A DNA stretch of 64,000 nucleotides, taken from sequence record PQ724394.1; one strand, written 5' to 3'. The position numbers and the translations under genes are program-made. This DNA is from a phage. Below are positions 17,235-48,840 of this stretch, in pieces (position 1 is the first letter of the stretch; each line of letters begins with the position of its first letter). The notes below the pieces were generated by a model. The model was not told the DNA's origin and searched no databases. It saw only the letters and a program-made list of their open reading frames with translations.

Positions 17235-17235
<1 letters not shown>
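17038..17235 (-). CDS. Hypothetical protein (65 aa)
   Basis: ORF directly downstream of pseT. Confidence 0.45.
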
Positions 17236-18456
<1,221 letters not shown>

Positions 18457-20244: not shown

Positions 20245-20273
20245 ATACTAACACATCATGAGGAGATGTAAAC
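20245..20273 (-). promoter_or_regulatory. Early-promoter cassette (GTTTAC -35, 17 nt, TAGTAT -10)
   Basis: Family member upstream of 19714-20214, followed by GAGGAG RBS. Confidence 0.45.
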
Positions 20274-21421
20274 TACTCTATCACAATTTCTTTCAAATAT
20301 TTTTCAGGGATTTGGGCCTTATGATTTTTCAAGAACACAGAGTTAATCTGGTCCACGACTGTATCATAATTAATACCGTCTACGTACGCCTGCATAAGAA
20401 TAGAGAACAGCCCTGGGAAGTCTTTGAGGATTAACTGACCGGTAACAGCGTAGTCTTTACGGTCACGACCCTTGAGCTGAGAATATGCTGCTTCTAACAA
20501 AGCCAAGGACTGTTCTAAGTAGTCTAAATGGATACGTTCAAATGCATTGATTTTCTCGATAGCAAATGAATCGGTGCTGAACAAACCTCGGAGGTCATCA
20601 GTTCCACCAGCCACTACAACTTCAAACAAACGTTCGTTATTGTTAATGGAATCTTTGGTATGATGCAGTGCGCTATACCAAGCGGTTTTGAGTTTAAAGA
20701 ACGTGCCATCTTTAAGTACAAAGATAAAGCCTTCAATACCCTCTTGTTTACGGATATTGTCAACAAAATCACCTTCAGAGAGTTCATAGCTTTTAACCAA
20801 ATGCTTACGCAGAGCGCCATCTTTAAACAGTTCAGCATAAGGGATATACTCACCCGTTTCGTTATTACGAACGTTCAGTAAGATAAGGTTTGTTTCTTGG
20901 TAAGCCAGCACAATACGGTTAGTAGGCGAAACATACTCGAGGTTGCATGTGTAGCCTGCTTTAGTAATTTCTTCTAAACGAGCAGCGAAGGCCTCGTTTT
21001 CAGGGAGTCGAAGGAAACGTAAAGAATCATGTACCATCGACGAATGGATAGAGCCTTTAGATTTAACAGAAAGATATTGTCTGTCCATGAAGGTAGAAAT
21101 CAAGGAACCATCTTCCTTAGCCATTACGAGGTCGATATTTTCTTGTGATAAATCTAAACCAATAGTCAACGGGTTTTCATCGAGATTAAAGAACTTTTGC
21201 ATAGGACGAGCAGCGATACGTACCGGACCATTCTCGTCCATTTCAAACATAATGCCTCGGCACTCTAGTGCGCCGTCTTCCAACCAATCACTGTATGATG
21301 CATAGTTATAACTAAAGATGCGATAGTTGACTCCTAGAGCACTCTGGAAGTCTTTAAAGAAGAACTTAGATTTAGTTGAGTTTTTAACCAAAGTCATCAA
21401 GTTATCATATAATTCAATCAT
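20273..21421 (-). CDS. rnlA: RNA ligase 1
   Basis: Nucleotidyltransferase lysine motif (MAKEDGSLIS, KxDG); 382 aa; position as T4 rnlA. Confidence 0.85.
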   Translation of the reverse strand: MIELYDNLMTLVKNSTKSKFFFKDFQSALGVNYRIFSYNYASYSDWLEDGALECRGIMFEMDENGPVRIAARPMQKFFNLDENPLTIGLDLSQENIDLVMAKEDGSLISTFMDRQYLSVKSKGSIHSSMVHDSLRFLRLPENEAFAARLEEITKAGYTCNLEYVSPTNRIVLAYQETNLILLNVRNNETGEYIPYAELFKDGALRKHLVKSYELSEGDFVDNIRKQEGIEGFIFVLKDGTFFKLKTAWYSALHHTKDSINNNERLFEVVVAGGTDDLRGLFSTDSFAIEKINAFERIHLDYLEQSLALLEAAYSQLKGRDRKDYAVTGQLILKDFPGLFSILMQAYVDGINYDTVVDQINSVFLKNHKAQIPEKYLKEIVIE

Positions 21422-21858: not shown

Positions 21859-23037
21859 TTAAAAATATTTCTTGTATGACGCCATTACTTTTTCATCGAC
21901 ATCATTATCAATTTGTGCTACAAGGTAAGAACTGATTTCCACTTCCTGAGGAGCAGCCTGTACAGCATCAGAGTTCAGGTATTCACGAATCCAAGGATAT
22001 GGATGGCGAGTAGGGGCATCAGTAATAGGACATGGTAAGCCACATTGCTTCATACGAGAAACTGTCAGGTAATCGACAAAAGCACCCATGTTCTGAGTAT
22101 TTAATCCAGGGCAAGTACCATCTTTGAACAGGTGGGCAGCCCACTCTTTTTCTTGTCGGTTAACTTCCATGAAAATATCAACTGCTTCTTGTTCACACTC
22201 TTGGGCAATTTTAACCCATTCATCACCATCTGTACCAAGCTGGAGTTGACGGATAATGTACTGGGTGCCTTTAAGGTGAAGCTGTTCATCACGTGCAATG
22301 AACTTCATAATCTTAGCATTACCTTCCATGATTTCCATATTCTTATGGAAGTTAAAGGTACATGCGAAAGATACGTAAAAACGAATAGCTTCCAATGCGT
22401 TGATTACATGCAGGCAGAGGTAAAGAGAGCGCATTAGTTCACGTTTCCAATACATTTCATGCTCTATGGCATCTTCAATATCATCTTCGTCTGAGTTAAT
22501 TTCTTTTTGGTACTCAATATCAGCTTTAGCATTCTGCCAATATCTAGTTTTCTCAATAACATCGTCATAATAACGACCAATAGATTCAGCACGTTTCATG
22601 ATAGCTTCATCTAACAGAATTTCATCAAATACCTTAGATGGGTCTGTATAGAGGTTACGCATGATATGGGTATAAGAACGAGAGTGAATGGTTTCACTAA
22701 AGGTCCATGTAGCCACCCAAGTATCAAGGCTAGGGTCTGAAATCAAGGCTTGGAGTGCAGCAGACGGCGCACGTCCCTGGATACTATCCAGAAGTGATTG
22801 ATACTTCAGGTTATTGGTAAAAATATTTTGCTGGAATTGTGGAAGCTTATTAAACTGGGCAGCATCCATCATCAAGTTAACTTCTTCAGGACGCCAGAAG
22901 AAACTCAACTGTTTTTCACAAAGCTCTTCGAATACTTTATGACGTTGGATATCGTAACGAGCAATACCCAATCCTGAACCAAAGAACATCGGTTCGACTA
23001 AAACATCAACTGGGGTAGTATTAAAAACTGTAGACAT
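21859..23037 (-). CDS. nrdB: Ribonucleotide reductase small subunit (class Ia)
   Basis: Start taken at MSTVFNTTPVD.. as in T4 NrdB; one contiguous ORF. Confidence 0.9.
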   Translation of the reverse strand: MSTVFNTTPVDVLVEPMFFGSGLGIARYDIQRHKVFEELCEKQLSFFWRPEEVNLMMDAAQFNKLPQFQQNIFTNNLKYQSLLDSIQGRAPSAALQALISDPSLDTWVATWTFSETIHSRSYTHIMRNLYTDPSKVFDEILLDEAIMKRAESIGRYYDDVIEKTRYWQNAKADIEYQKEINSDEDDIEDAIEHEMYWKRELMRSLYLCLHVINALEAIRFYVSFACTFNFHKNMEIMEGNAKIMKFIARDEQLHLKGTQYIIRQLQLGTDGDEWVKIAQECEQEAVDIFMEVNRQEKEWAAHLFKDGTCPGLNTQNMGAFVDYLTVSRMKQCGLPCPITDAPTRHPYPWIREYLNSDAVQAAPQEVEISSYLVAQIDNDVDEKVMASYKKYF

Positions 23038-23090
23038 GTTATTCTCATTTGTTAGTGACTCATCCATGAGTCAATTATAATCAGATTTTA

Positions 23091-25346
23091 TTAAAGCTTA
23101 CAAGCTGCGCAATCATCGGCTTTAGGAGTTTCGATTTCATAATCGTCAGTACCAGAGCCATCACGGGTATTATGATAATAAAGGTTCTTACCACCAAAGT
23201 ACCAGAAATATAACAGGTCATCAAGCATTACTGACATAGGAACTTTTCCTTTCTCATAATTCTGAGGGTCGTAATACGTATTCGCTGATGCTGATTGGCA
23301 AACCCATTTCAACATAATTGCTACTTGGGTAAGATAAGGTTTATTACCTTTCTTAGCGAGGCTCCAAGCGTAATCATAGAGGCCTTGGTTATGTTCTACA
23401 TTAGGAACTACCTGACGGAAGTTACCTTCTTTAGATTCTTTAATACTTACCGGGCCACGCGGAGGTTCGATACCGTTTGTAGAGTTGGAAACTTGGCTGC
23501 TTGACTCGCATGGCATAAGTGCTGATAATGTGCTATTACGGATGCCATGTTTAGCCAAGTCTTCCCGCAACGACGACCAGTCACAAACATAGTTTGGGGC
23601 TGCGATTTGGTCAATCTTTTTATTGTACCAGTCGATAGGAAGCTCGCCTCGAGACCATTTAGTGTCTGAATAATACTCGCAAGGTCCTTTTTCTTCGGCC
23701 AACTTGATTGATGCTCGGATAAGTCCATACTGTAATCTCTCAAACAGTTCATGAGTTAAATCGTTTGCGTCTTCATAAGAAGCAAAGTTGCTTGCCAGCC
23801 ATGCTGCGTAGTTAGTAACACCCACACCAAGGTTACGACGTTTCTTAGCCTTCAGAGCTTCAGGAACAGGATAGCTTTGATAATCTAATAGGTTATCAAG
23901 TGCACGTACCTGTACTTCAGCGAGTTCGTTGATTTTGTCTTGGTCTTGCCAATCAAAGTTATCCAACACGAATGCAGACAGCGTACACAACCCGATTTCA
24001 GCGTCCGGACTATTCACATCTGTAGTCGGGATAGCAATTTCACAGCATAGGTTACTCTGGCGAATAGGAGCCTTTTCACGAATAAATGGTGTGAAGTTGT
24101 TAGTGTTATCAACAAACTGAGGATAAATTCGTGCAGTGCCTGAACGTTCGGTCATGAACAATTCAAAGAGGTCACGTGCTTTAATACGTTTCTTGCGAAT
24201 GCTAGGGTCCTTTTCAGCCGCTTCATACAATTCACGGAAACGTTCTTGGTCTTCAAAATAAGAATAATAAAGCTCGCCGCCCATTTCATGAGGACTGAAC
24301 AGCGTGATGTAATCATTTTTACCGAAACGTTCCATCATAAGGTCATTCAACTGGATTCCGTAGTCCATATGACGAATACGGTTCTCATCGACACCTTTGT
24401 TGTTTTTCAGAACGAGCAGATTTTCAACTTCCAAATGCCAAATAGGATAATAAGCAGTAGCAGCGCCGCCACGGATTCCACCTTGTGAACATGATTTAAC
24501 AGCAGTCTGGAAATGTTTCCAGAATGGAATAACACCGGTATGCTTGACTTCACCCATGCCAATACGAGAACCTTCAGCACGAATCATACCAACGTTGATA
24601 CCAATACCTGCACGTTTAGAAATGTATTCAATTATTGAGTTAGCGGTTTTGTTAATAGATTTCAGCGAGTCGCCTGCTTCAATAACCACACAAGAACTAA
24701 ATTGACGGGTTGGAGTACGTGCTCCTGCCATAATAGGAGTAGGCAACGAAACCTGACGAGTACTTACAGCGTCATAAAAACGAATAATATGTGCCAAACG
24801 GTTACCTGGCTCGTCTTGGTGTAAGGCCATACCAATACACATAATAGCGAACTGAGGGGTTTCGTAGATTTTACCGGTTGTTTTATCTTTAACCAGATAT
24901 TTCTCTTTCAGCTGCATTGCACCCGCATAGGTCAATTCAAAATCGCGTTCATGCTTGATATGAGATTCTAAGAAAGTAATTTCTTCTGCAGAATATCGAG
25001 ACAGCAATTCGGGGTCATATTTACCTTCGTTAACACAATAGGAAATATGGTCAATAAAACTGCGTGGTTCAAACTGACCGTAAACTTCTTTACGCAGTGC
25101 AAACATCAATTGCTTTGCAGCAACATACTGATAGTCAGGCTCTTCAACCGAGATAAGGTTAGCCGCCACCTTAACAGTCAGATTTTGGATATCTTTGGTG
25201 GTCATACCATCACGAAGGTGGGTTTTGATTTCTTCGTATAATTCATAGGGGTCGATTTGGGTTCCTTCACAGCCCCAAGTCAGAACTTTAATAATTTTTT
25301 GTGCGTCAAAATCTTGGGATACACCACTACTCTTTTGTACTTGCAT
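23091..25346 (-). CDS. nrdA: Ribonucleotide reductase large subunit (class Ia)
   Basis: 751 aa; C-terminal CAACKL tail; T4 NrdA-like. Confidence 0.95.
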   Translation of the reverse strand: MQVQKSSGVSQDFDAQKIIKVLTWGCEGTQIDPYELYEEIKTHLRDGMTTKDIQNLTVKVAANLISVEEPDYQYVAAKQLMFALRKEVYGQFEPRSFIDHISYCVNEGKYDPELLSRYSAEEITFLESHIKHERDFELTYAGAMQLKEKYLVKDKTTGKIYETPQFAIMCIGMALHQDEPGNRLAHIIRFYDAVSTRQVSLPTPIMAGARTPTRQFSSCVVIEAGDSLKSINKTANSIIEYISKRAGIGINVGMIRAEGSRIGMGEVKHTGVIPFWKHFQTAVKSCSQGGIRGGAATAYYPIWHLEVENLLVLKNNKGVDENRIRHMDYGIQLNDLMMERFGKNDYITLFSPHEMGGELYYSYFEDQERFRELYEAAEKDPSIRKKRIKARDLFELFMTERSGTARIYPQFVDNTNNFTPFIREKAPIRQSNLCCEIAIPTTDVNSPDAEIGLCTLSAFVLDNFDWQDQDKINELAEVQVRALDNLLDYQSYPVPEALKAKKRRNLGVGVTNYAAWLASNFASYEDANDLTHELFERLQYGLIRASIKLAEEKGPCEYYSDTKWSRGELPIDWYNKKIDQIAAPNYVCDWSSLREDLAKHGIRNSTLSALMPCESSSQVSNSTNGIEPPRGPVSIKESKEGNFRQVVPNVEHNQGLYDYAWSLAKKGNKPYLTQVAIMLKWVCQSASANTYYDPQNYEKGKVPMSVMLDDLLYFWYFGGKNLYYHNTRDGSGTDDYEIETPKADDCAACKL

Positions 25347-25412
25347 AATTTCCTCAATATGTTAGGTTCTACATCTATAATAACATAGAACCTGTTAAGC
25401 ATGGACTGATAT

Positions 25413-25706
25413 TTATAGGTCTTCTAATGAGAACGTATCTTTGAAAAGTTTGTTAACAACCAGGGCTATCACATCCCCATAACAGTCCTTAGGTTTACAG
25501 GTGCACGCTATTCGCATACCTCTAAGGGTTTCAAGGTGTTCTCTTTTAATTTCACCCGATTTTATTTTAGCAATAAAGTATTCTTTAAAGTTCTTGATGT
25601 TTTCCTCGCGGGTACCGTCTTTAAATGGATTACCCCACATGGTTCCACGCTGGATATTGACATCAAAATCTTCTTTATACTTGTTAACAACTCTACAGAC
25701 TCTCAT
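25413..25706 (-). CDS. Hypothetical protein with WGNPF motif and Cys cluster (start uncertain)
   Basis: MRVCRVVNKYKEDFDVNIQRGTMWGNPFKDG...ACTCKPKDC; track start is TTG overlapping td 3' end, internal ATG used. Confidence 0.4.
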   Translation of the reverse strand: MRVCRVVNKYKEDFDVNIQRGTMWGNPFKDGTREENIKNFKEYFIAKIKSGEIKREHLETLRGMRIACTCKPKDCYGDVIALVVNKLFKDTFSLEDL

Positions 25707-25767
25707 TATAGCACCAAATTCAGCCCAATCATAATAACCAAAAATAAGGTACCAGCGATTTGAATTT

Positions 25768-26624
25768 TCATACAGCCATCTTAGCCTTAATAGTAGGGTG
25801 CGATTCGTAACCTTTAAGAACAAAATCAGACGGCTTCATTGAATCAATCCAAGACAGTTGTGTCTTAGTGTCCCAAAGAATAAATTCTTCCGGTAAATTA
25901 ATTTCAAGTTCACAAAGCTCTTTAGGTTCGCGACGAAGAACTTCTTGGCATTGTTCAACGTGATTAGAATAGATATGCGTATTGCCGCCTGAAAACACTA
26001 AATCGCCAGGAATAAGATTACACATCTTAGCTACAATATGCACAAGAGCGGCGTAAGAGGCGATATTAAATGGTAATCCTAAGAACACGTCAACAGAACG
26101 TTGATACCACTGGAGGTCAAGATGACCGTTACGAACGTTGAACTGATAAAAACAATGACATGGTGGAAGAGCCATCTGGTCGATTTCAGCCGGGTTCCAT
26201 GCGGATACGATTTGACGTCGGTCATTAGGCATCTTTTTAATACGGTTGATAATTTCTACAACCTGGTCGACACCACCAAAATCTCGCCATTGTTTCCCAT
26301 ATACAGGACCGAGTTCACCGCTATGATAACCTAAATCTTTGGCCTGATTTTCATAATTCTCGTCCCAAATAGTTTTACCGTCAATTAATGAACCGTGAGT
26401 ACGGAAACGAAGGTCATTAACGTTAGTTGAACCCGAAAGGAACCAAAGGAGCTCAGCAATACAGGCTTTCCATGCTAATTTTTTAGTTGTTACTGCAGGA
26501 AAGCCTTTAGTTAAATCAAAACGTAATTTAGTACCGAACAGCGCAATTGTACCGGTACCGGTACGGTCGTCAGTTTCGTAGCCATTTTCCAGGATATCTT
26601 TAATTAAAAATTGATATTGTTTCA

Positions 26625-26625
<1 letters not shown>
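25768..26625 (-). CDS. td: Thymidylate synthase
   Basis: MKQYQFLIKDILENGYETDDRTGTGT.. matches T4 Td; one contiguous ORF (track start is an upstream TTG). Confidence 0.95.
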
Positions 26626-27747
<1,122 letters not shown>

Positions 27748-46438: not shown

Positions 46439-46543
46439 TTACTTTTTAAAGTGAGCCGCTATTAGACCTATAGCTAAGCCCGTTGCCAGGCCTAGGATAA
46501 CAGCAAAGATACAGAGTAACAAGAACTCAACTCCAAGGCTCAT
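46439..46543 (-). CDS. Small hydrophobic peptide (34 aa), coupled to gene 52 stop
   Basis: ATG overlaps gene 52 TGA (ATGA); MSLGVEFLLLCIFAVILGLATGLAIGLIAAHFKK; not in ORF track. Confidence 0.4.
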   Translation of the reverse strand: MSLGVEFLLLCIFAVILGLATGLAIGLIAAHFKK

Positions 46544-47919
46544 AGAGCCTCCAAATCTTTAATATACTCAGTTACAACATCAGTGGTTTTCCAGTATTGG
46601 TGCTCTTCCTTCTTAGCCTTAGCTTCGAGGGCCAATTTCTTGGCTTCGTCAGAGGTAATATGGAAAATATTCATTGCTACAAGTTTATCAGCATATTCGC
46701 CATAGACTTTGTTACTGGCCAATTCTTCGGTTAAAACCTTACGGGTCTTACCTTGGATAACCACTACGCCATCAATAACATCTTTAATGAATGTAGCTTT
46801 AGCCAGGGCCAGTTTGAAAGCTTCTTCGGTTTCGATGATTTTACCATCAATACGTTTTTGTACAAAGGTCTTACGGACCTCAACGAAATCACGAATCAGT
46901 TCAACTGCATCTTCGTAAACCTTAAGTTTACCTTTCTCATTAATAACGGTCAGGTTTTGCGAACGACGTTCGATTAACCCAAAGTCTTTCATGATTTTTT
47001 CGTGCTTCTTATTTTCTTCAGTAGGCAATTCATATTCTTTACGAATCTTAACCTTGAAGCCGAAACCATTCTCGTCACAGTCGTCATCATACGTGATATA
47101 CCCTTTGTCTTCTAAAGGGTCCAGAACCTTGGCCACATACGTTTCACGGTCATATTTGTACGGGATTTCTGTGATATGCATTTGGGTTCGAGATGTGAAC
47201 TTATAGGTCCCACGAATCTCATAACTTCCAGGTTCAATCTCAACAACTTCACCACGGAATTCCGGATAAGCCACCTTAGGCTTGGTTACGCGTTTTTCTT
47301 GAAGAACCTGCAATACAGCTTTCTTAACAGAATCAAAACTATGAGGAAGGATATTAGTTGCATAACCAGTTGCAATACCGGAAATACCATTAAGAAGAAC
47401 AGTAGGAATAATAGGCAGATAAAAAGCTGGTGGCTTATGTTCGACATCCGCATGAACCGGAGCATATTCTGTATCCTTATAAACCTTTGCGAAATTAGTT
47501 CCAATTCGTGCAAAAATATAACGAGATGCCGCTGCTTTTTGAACCAAACGAGAACCAAAGTTACCTTGTCCATCTAACAGTGGGAAGTTGTTGTTCCATG
47601 TGTTGGCCATCAAAGCCCCTGCTTCCTGAGCAGAACCTTCACCATGGTGGTATCCAAGGTCGGCTACACCACCTGCAATAGAAGCTAGTTTGTGGAATTT
47701 TTCTTTATTACCACGAGCCATATCAAGACAACGAGCAACTACAAAACGTTGTACAGGTTTAAAACCGTCAATCATATTTGGAATGGCGCGGTTTTCGACA
47801 GTATACATTGCGTAAGCCAGCGCTTCGTTGTCGATGATGCTTTTTAAGTCACGACGAGTAAAAGCATCATCGTAAACATCTAAGGATTGTTTAAAAAGGG
47901 TATCAATTACATCAGCCAT
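46540..47919 (-). CDS. 52: DNA topoisomerase II medium subunit gp52 (GyrA-like)
   Basis: 459 aa; GyrA/ParC-like block PNMIDGFKPVQRFV; synteny. Confidence 0.9.
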   Translation of the reverse strand: MADVIDTLFKQSLDVYDDAFTRRDLKSIIDNEALAYAMYTVENRAIPNMIDGFKPVQRFVVARCLDMARGNKEKFHKLASIAGGVADLGYHHGEGSAQEAGALMANTWNNNFPLLDGQGNFGSRLVQKAAASRYIFARIGTNFAKVYKDTEYAPVHADVEHKPPAFYLPIIPTVLLNGISGIATGYATNILPHSFDSVKKAVLQVLQEKRVTKPKVAYPEFRGEVVEIEPGSYEIRGTYKFTSRTQMHITEIPYKYDRETYVAKVLDPLEDKGYITYDDDCDENGFGFKVKIRKEYELPTEENKKHEKIMKDFGLIERRSQNLTVINEKGKLKVYEDAVELIRDFVEVRKTFVQKRIDGKIIETEEAFKLALAKATFIKDVIDGVVVIQGKTRKVLTEELASNKVYGEYADKLVAMNIFHITSDEAKKLALEAKAKKEEHQYWKTTDVVTEYIKDLEAL

Positions 47920-47923
47920 AATT

Positions 47924-48064
47924 TTACCATACTAGTGAATGAATAACCATAATAACATCGGAAATAAAAAGCACAACTTGGATAAGACCGAATATTACTC
48001 CATAATACAGCGCTACTAATAAAGCAGCAAGGGCTACAGAGTAGCCCAGGATTTGTTTAATCAT
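47924..48064 (-). CDS. Small membrane peptide (46 aa), not in ORF track
   Basis: MIKQILGYSVALAALLVALYYGVIFGLIQVVLFISDVIMVIHSLVW; ATG overlaps upstream stop. Confidence 0.4.
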   Translation of the reverse strand: MIKQILGYSVALAALLVALYYGVIFGLIQVVLFISDVIMVIHSLVW

Positions 48065-48225
48065 TTCTTGACCAAGGCTTCCAGAAATTTAACGATTGCA
48101 TCAATTACGAACCAAGTGCAAATAAATCCAACAGCGAAAGGACCTGGAACCCACACACCAGCAGCAAAAAGGGTTACCCACACAATAACAATCACGAGCC
48201 AGATAAAAGTATAAATCGGTTGCAT
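48061..48225 (-). CDS. Small membrane protein (54 aa), Ac-like by position
   Basis: MQPIYTFIWLVIVIVWVTLFAAGVWVPGPFAVGFICTWFVIDAIVKFLEALVKK; two predicted TM segments; position of T4 ac. Confidence 0.4.
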   Translation of the reverse strand: MQPIYTFIWLVIVIVWVTLFAAGVWVPGPFAVGFICTWFVIDAIVKFLEALVKK

Positions 48226-48232
48226 AATTTCC

Positions 48233-48313
48233 TCACAAGCGTCCGAAGACGCCTTTGGTTTTAAGATTGTTACGATAGAACTGCATCACATGTTCGTTAT
48301 GGAAATTACTCAT
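48233..48313 (-). CDS. stp: Stp peptide (26 aa)
   Basis: Translates to [26 protein letters not shown], essentially the T4 Stp sequence as recalled; ATG overlaps ndd stop by 1 nt. Confidence 0.8.
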
Positions 48314-48762
48314 TAGTAAGCCTGCAGAACGAATTTGAAGTTATCGGCCAACATGCGGTTCATTTCTTCCAGAGTCTGAAGGTCGGAACTATGGTTGCGA
48401 GTGAAAGCCATTGCAATTTGACCTTTACCAAAGCCTGTGGTCAGTGGTTTCATTTTAGAAGCTGGCACATAAAGAACTTCGTACAGAACACCATTTACGG
48501 CCATGGTACGAGCTGATTGTGAACGTTTCTTACGAATGTTAGCCACGATACCATCAAGACCTTGAGCTGAACGTTGGTTGCCGACATAAAAACGAGCGGC
48601 TACGACACGAGAATCTGCTTCACCTTTAACAAAGAAGTAGAAGCCGGGCTGAGCCGAGATTTCTTTAGAAGGCTTACCATTTTGGTATTCGCCATTCTTA
48701 ACATAAGCAACAGTAGTAGCACCAGCAGACAGAACGTTACCGCGAGTCATATAAGTATTCAT
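48313..48762 (-). CDS. ndd: Nucleoid disruption protein Ndd
   Basis: 149 aa; ..[12 protein letters not shown]...RKKRSQ.ART.A...[24 protein letters not shown]...[21 protein letters not shown] matches T4 Ndd. Confidence 0.9.
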
Positions 48763-48803: not shown

Positions 48804-48840
48804 CGAGAACCATTATAACATGATTCTCGAGGTTGTAAAC
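48804..48840 (-). promoter_or_regulatory. Early promoter for ndd (GTTTAC -35, 17 nt, TATAAT -10 in loop of CGAGAA/TTCTCG stem)
   Basis: Minus strand GTTTAC 48840-48835, TATAAT 48817-48812. Confidence 0.6.

Follow-up and report, generated by a model that had tools for sequence, protein, structure and literature searches.

Identification of stp and its genomic setting

The DNA analysed here is a stretch of 64,000 nucleotides of phage sequence (record PQ724394.1), hereafter referred to as the window, which belongs to a T4-like phage of the genus Dhakavirus. Over 24 kb the best-matching record was Phage NC-G, with 93.7% identity, and the next-best records were other phages of the JS98/JS10 group. 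Translation of the minus strand from position 48313 to position 48233 resulted in 26 codons followed by a TGA stop codon, and a mechanically generated list of open reading frames contains exactly this 26-codon ATG ORF (48233–48313 (−)). The first-pass annotation had described a near-exact copy of the T4 Stp peptide at this position, and translation and alignment bore this out: the Stp sequence was obtained, with 25 of 26 residues and 77 of 81 nucleotides identical to the annotated Stp of T4T. The only residue that differs from T4 Stp is the last one (Q26 to L), residues 1–25 being the same, including the mutation-sensitive residues 4–14. Searches with the peptide gave matches to Pfam PF08133, the anticodon nuclease activator family (E 1e-20, 73.1 bits, well above the curated gathering score of 25 bits), and to phrog_6763, annotated as 'activator of host PrrC lysyl-tRNA endonuclease' (E 8e-21, 74.5 bits). 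The ORF also resembles Stp in having some 26 residues, the N-proximal 18 of which are conserved, in its location directly downstream of ndd and upstream of the ac/52.1/52 genes, and in its coding-type evolution under purifying selection, described below. As judged from its sequence, 48233–48313 is an orthologue of T4 stp and a genuine gene.

The genes on the minus strand are arranged in the order ndd, stp, a small membrane ORF, 52.1 and 52, the order in T4 being ndd, stp, ac, 52.1 and 52. The arrangement ndd-stp-x-52.1-52 is common to the window, T4T and JS10, with stp annotated in the latter two. The TAA stop codon of ndd, which encodes the nucleoid disruption protein (48313–48762 (−); Pfam PF06591, 229.9 bits), overlaps the ATG of stp in the sequence TAATG; this junction is identical in T4T and suggests translational coupling of stp to the ndd stop codon. 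Upstream of ndd, a consensus scan identified a strong sigma-70/early-type promoter-like site, TTTACA-16-(TG)TATAAT, agreeing at 11 of 12 positions (48812–48839 (−)), and a transcript carrying ndd and stp is likely to originate from this putative promoter. Downstream of stp are an ORF encoding a predicted membrane protein of 54 amino acids in the slot of T4 ac (48061–48225 (−); phrog_9347), gene 52.1, encoding a membrane protein of 46 amino acids (47924–48064 (−); DUF7396, Pfam PF24129, 77.4 bits) with 89% amino-acid identity to T4 52.1, and gene 52, encoding the topoisomerase II medium subunit (46540–47919 (−); Pfam PF00521, 251.7 bits). The last of these is annotated as gene 52 in JS10 and T4T and provided the synteny anchor for the region.

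Variation and selection in the Stp peptide

Within T-even-type phages the stp DNA is almost invariant and such comparisons are consequently uninformative on selection. Values of dN/dS for stp in the window against T2, VR7 and TH41 were 0.20–0.31. In the comparison of the window with the stp copy of the Kagunavirus Ro145clw, 10.5 of 12.8 silent sites differed (pS 0.82), as against 3.5 of 59.2 replacement sites (pN 0.06). Because the distant copies in siphoviruses change nearly every silent site yet keep the core of the peptide, stp is, on the evidence of its sequence evolution, a genuine protein-coding gene subject to purifying selection.

An alignment of 11 diverse Stp copies showed six invariant positions besides the start methionine (N6, H8, M10, Q11, R14 and K18), all of them within the N-proximal 18 residues, while the C-terminal third varied. 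The invariant columns coincide with the part of the peptide identified as functional in T4, where loss-of-function suppressors in stp cluster at residues 4–14 and removal of the eight C-terminal codons reduces both activities only moderately (PMC3014915). Given this free C-terminus in the alignment and the mild effect of the C-terminal deletion, the replacement of Q26 by L in the window is expected to be neutral. Codon 26 is CAG in T4, CCT in VR7 and TTG in the window, and in JS10 and dhaeg it is TAA, resulting in a peptide of 25 amino acids; the same TGA follows in all of them, so that the peptide of the window runs one codon further than those of JS10 and dhaeg, to the shared stop. Residues 1–25 are identical to those of the JS10/JS98 Stp, which sits in the same genus-level backbone. 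Compared with T4, the window has in common the length of 26 amino acids, the TAATG junction with ndd, the downstream gene order and a hairpin at the 3′ end of stp, whereas it differs in the last residue and in an unrelated 54-amino-acid membrane ORF replacing ac.

A tblastn search with Stp gave matches in 799 phage records (E up to 1), 438 of which reached 99% identity or more across the aligned part, the weakest matches spanning just about 18 residues. The exact 26-residue form with a terminal L did not turn up among these matches, the best full-length match being 96.2% identical, and we consider the difference trivial. In an even sample of 60 matching records, 9 name the gene. It is annotated in JS10 and in the RefSeq record of JS98, both of the same genus as the window, as 'stp activator of host PrrC lysyl-tRNA endonuclease', and the closest record, that of NC-G, has no CDS over it. 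In view of this, the remark in the first-pass annotation that the track had missed the ORF is plausible. Overall, stp is present in hundreds of T-even-type genomes, and its absence from the annotation of most T4-like records is due to its being shorter than the usual length limits of gene callers.

Stp-like micro-ORFs sharing the core xHNEH[VI]MQ[FWL][YH]R were also located by tblastn in several unrelated siphovirus lineages, mostly unannotated and in early or accessory regions. In the segments examined, they were found at 2501–2578 in Kagunavirus Ro145clw, 2483–2575 in Braunvirinae ZL19, 1975–2052 in Nouzillyvirus XT34, 1501–1581 in Salmonella phage KKP 3830 and 1501–1584 in Skatevirus seszw. 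A possible repair pair in these Stp-carrying siphoviruses was considered and rejected; the 'polynucleotide kinase' of XT34 has only a HAD phosphatase motif and lacks the kinase P-loop, and the annotation of XT34 includes no RNA ligase. No mention of siphovirus Stp homologues was found in the searchable literature.

A hairpin at the 3′ end of stp

On the mRNA, codons 21–25 of stp form a C(UUCG)G tetraloop hairpin, GCGUC-UUCG-GACGC (48239–48252 (−)), located 2 nt before the stp stop codon and just upstream of the GAGG Shine-Dalgarno sequence of the next gene. Folding of a 36-nt segment gave −11.1 kcal/mol (z −2.2). The hairpin is kept in T4T and VR7 and is absent from T2 and from the Kagunavirus stp copy. 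Codon 26 begins with a pyrimidine in every hairpin-bearing copy, whatever the codon specifies, and this base lengthens the stem, which suggests a constraint at the RNA level rather than at the peptide level at this codon. Hairpins of the C(UUCG)G type are abundant in T4-type transcripts. Across both strands of the whole window, the sequence CTTCGG occurs 42 times, about two-fold the 19.4 ± 4.8 copies expected from dinucleotide-preserving shuffles (0 of 100 shuffles reached 42), an excess consistent with that abundance.

The variable cassette between stp and 52.1

The slot between stp and 52.1 is a swappable cassette with at least four unrelated alleles, T2 having no comparable ORF there. The alleles comprise the 51-amino-acid Ac of T4, the phrog_9347 type of 54–55 amino acids in the window, dhaeg and VR7, an unannotated 53-amino-acid ORF in JS10, which is a different allele from that of the window, and a 49-amino-acid Ac-like ORF in NC-G. 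All of them resemble small hydrophobic proteins and are probably located in the membrane. Nucleotide identity between the window and T4 falls from 95% in stp to 84% in 52.1, 66% in ndd and 50% in the cassette. The 54-amino-acid ORF of the window was considered as a candidate for T4 ac and rejected on the basis of 24% identity over a partial alignment, no Pfam match and membership of a separate PHROG (phrog_9347).

In NC-G (MK310184.1, 107000–111000), two unannotated stp copies are present on the minus strand between ndd and 52.1. One is of the VR7 type and the other forms an in-frame fusion with a 52.1-like N-terminus, each being followed by a different small membrane ORF; the fused copy looks like the footprint of recombination between the stp and 52.1 anchors. 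An additional ORF encoding a Cys-rich protein of 57 amino acids lies between ndd and stp in dhaeg and NC-G, and is missing from the window. The duplication in NC-G raised the idea that stp and the adjacent membrane ORF form a two-gene module, which was dismissed as the types are mixed across the window, dhaeg, VR7, JS10 and NC-G.

The repair genes pseT and rnlA

The presence of pseT and rnlA, which the first-pass annotation had placed at 17235–18143 and 20273–21421, was confirmed, both being minus-strand ORFs encoding full-length homologues of the T4 enzymes. The pseT gene (17235–18143 (−); Pfam HAD_PNKP, 196 bits, and AAA_33) encodes a polynucleotide 5′-kinase/3′-phosphatase (Pnkp) that aligned without gaps over 301 of 301 residues to the T4 enzyme (PDB 1LTQ; E 2e-186) with 88% identity, and contains both the N-terminal P-loop kinase domain and the C-terminal HAD (DxDxT) phosphatase domain. 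All 13 active-site residues that were checked are conserved, namely K15, S16, D35, R38, R126, D165, D167, T169, R176, R213, D254, D277 and D278, the list of essential residues being that of mutational studies of the Shuman laboratory. The ORF opens with ATGATGA (18137–18143 (−)). Its second ATG, at 18140, would start the protein with MKKIIL, as in T4, and overlaps with the TGA stop codon of an upstream ORF of 106 amino acids, and for these two reasons the true start of pseT may be at 18140 rather than 18143, making the gene one codon shorter.

RNA ligase 1 (Rnl1) is encoded by rnlA (gene 63; 20273–21421 (−); Pfam RNA_lig_T4_1, PF09511, and T4_Rnl1_C). The predicted protein gave a full-length match to PDB 2C5U (E 4e-111), being 48.9% identical to T4 Rnl1 and eight residues longer. 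The residues presumed essential from published mutational work, K99 (motif I, KxDG), R54, K75, F77, D101, G102, K119, E159, E227, G228, K240 and K242, are conserved in 12 of 12 cases, including the equivalent of the adenylylated Lys99; this brings the conserved catalytic or essential positions to 25 of 25 for Pnkp and Rnl1 together. The C-terminal domain specific to Rnl1 is associated with tRNA repair specificity, and its profile (PF20819, T4_Rnl1_C) matched with 156.4 bits over positions 1–122 of 122. As the protein is only 49% identical to T4 Rnl1, a substrate preference like that of the T4 enzyme is assumed here. Both enzymes share full-length domain architecture and syntenic location with their T4 counterparts, the difference lying in the much lower identity of Rnl1 than of Pnkp.

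The region is syntenic with the denA-rnlA-alc-...-pseT region of T4 and includes an endonuclease in the denA position, an Alc-type inhibitor of host transcription and small ORFs of the pseT region. An ORF of 145 amino acids upstream of rnlA, which matched the phage 'endonuclease' family phrog_1111, was considered as a homing endonuclease and rejected, since its denA position represents ordinary synteny. Large ORFs at 21859–27409 (−) are predicted to represent the nrdB/nrdA/td/frd region, an assignment presumed from ORF sizes and from synteny with the T4 map. No Rfam family, group I introns included, attained its gathering score in any part of the window; should the nrdB/td assignment hold, td and nrdB would be without the introns of T4.

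Alternative explanations

Short ORFs are plentiful, 48 of at least 20 amino acids overlapping one 3.5 kb stretch, and a chance ORF with an accidental resemblance to Stp might be expected among them; an E value of 1e-20 to the family profile, 25 of 26 identical residues and conserved synteny already refute this explanation, to which we attach virtually no probability. It is also conceivable that 48233–48313 is conserved mainly as a nucleic-acid element, either a recombination anchor or an mRNA hairpin, the ORF being incidental or untranslated. The contrast in nucleotide identity to T4 between stp (95%) and its neighbours (ndd 66%, next gene 50%) would agree with this, as would its location flanking a cassette-swapping region, its duplication in NC-G and the conserved hairpin in its 3′ end. 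The hairpin, however, spans just the last five codons, and the distant copies retain the peptide despite change at almost every silent position and have start codons and Shine-Dalgarno sequences of their own. In T4, moreover, function is lost through missense mutations in the peptide, which is sufficient on its own (PMC3014915). Conservation mainly as nucleic acid is very improbable on these grounds.

A different question is what has driven the selection of stp. The peptide may have been kept purely for anti-restriction against type IC enzymes, with Pnkp and Rnl1 serving general RNA-end repair or mRNA processing, in which case the trio would not be a co-selected functional set in this phage but a by-product of T4 genetics. 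Stp-like peptides with the same core occur without the repair pair in siphoviruses (Kagunavirus, Drexlerviridae and Skatevirus), which fits anti-restriction as the primary selective role, and in the window stp lies 27–30 kb from pseT and rnlA. Pnkp, for its part, also processes mRNA cut by RegB (PMC3014915). Set against this, T4 pnk and rnl1 mutants have a single strong phenotype, namely that they are restricted on prr+ hosts, and mutations in stp suppress it (PMC3014915). We consider selection for anti-restriction alone unlikely; it is compatible with T4-like Stp action backed by Pnkp and Rnl1 and would change solely the presumed driver of selection. A broader proposal, which we offer tentatively and would not favour over its negation, is that Stp is one member of a wider, largely unannotated family of micro-peptides (core xHNEH[VI]MQ[FWL][YH]Rxx[LI]K) that would provide general type IC anti-restriction, without a tRNA-repair back-up, in unrelated lineages of ordinary-DNA coliphages and Salmonella phages (Kagunavirus, Drexlerviridae and Skatevirus), the T-even copies being near-identical in nucleotides because they might double as recombination anchor and mRNA hairpin beside the swappable membrane-protein cassette.

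Predicted role of Stp, Pnkp and Rnl1

The reading that we prefer is that the window, from a Dhakavirus-type T4-like phage, carries an orthologue of T4 stp which, by homology, very probably acts as in T4 and is accompanied by tRNA repair through Pnkp and Rnl1. Its basis is sequence identity, synteny, purifying selection and the preserved catalytic residues of both repair enzymes. That the genes of this phage are expressed, that the peptide binds type IC enzymes and activates PrrC, and that the tRNA is repaired are predictions from the genetics and biochemistry of T4. According to the scheme established for T4, inhibition of the type IC enzyme EcoprrI by Stp unmasks PrrC, and Pnkp and Rnl1 repair the cleaved tRNA-Lys (PMC3014915); the mechanism of Stp and PrrC has been reviewed likewise (PMC12707154; PMC12409349). 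The mode by which Stp inhibits EcoprrI is described as unknown in a 2025 review (PMC12707154), and the literature searched, including reviews up to 2025, contained nothing beyond this classical picture on newer Stp functions, triggers or structures.

Applied to the phage studied here, the scheme would begin with ndd and stp, probably transcribed early from the promoter upstream of ndd, and with translation of stp, probably coupled to termination at the stop codon of ndd. The peptide would then most likely bind the Hsd complex of type IC enzymes such as EcoprrI and EcoR124I and block restriction. In hosts with prrC in the type IC locus, this action would unmask the PrrC anticodon nuclease, which, as in T4 infection, would cut tRNA-Lys 5′ to the wobble base, and the cleaved ends would be healed by Pnkp and sealed by Rnl1. 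Towards PrrC, Stp is the trigger and as such the liability of the phage, the pay-off being anti-restriction. A phage-encoded tRNA-Lys was considered as another counter to PrrC and ruled out, ARAGORN finding no tRNA genes in the window. A comparable logic, in which a phage inhibitor of type I restriction-modification triggers an abortive-infection effector, is seen in PARIS, which senses Ocr, and in Ronin, and PARIS likewise cleaves tRNA-Lys (PMC12409349). The triggers and effectors of those systems are unrelated proteins and the likeness is one of analogy only, not of membership.

The first-pass annotation had further proposed that stp completes an anticodon-nuclease trio with pseT and rnlA, and that the phage is equipped for hosts carrying prr-type loci. 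As regards the trio, the identities and coordinates of the genes held up and the textbook scheme fits by homology, although the three do not constitute a module, stp being about 27–30 kb away from the other two. The second proposal stands insofar as everything needed at the sequence level for a transfer of the T4 scheme by homology is in place; it says little that is specific about host range, since T-even-type phages carry the trio as a rule.

The gene, its partners and its mechanism have been known for decades and are neither new nor specific to this phage, and with stp already annotated in the same genus the finding opens no new question. Its practical value is that of a correction to the annotation, stp being among the best-understood phage anti-restriction factors that are sensed by a host 'guard' system, in this case PrrC. 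Where stp is recorded correctly, predictions of host range and of defence evasion can include type IC restriction-modification and prr loci.
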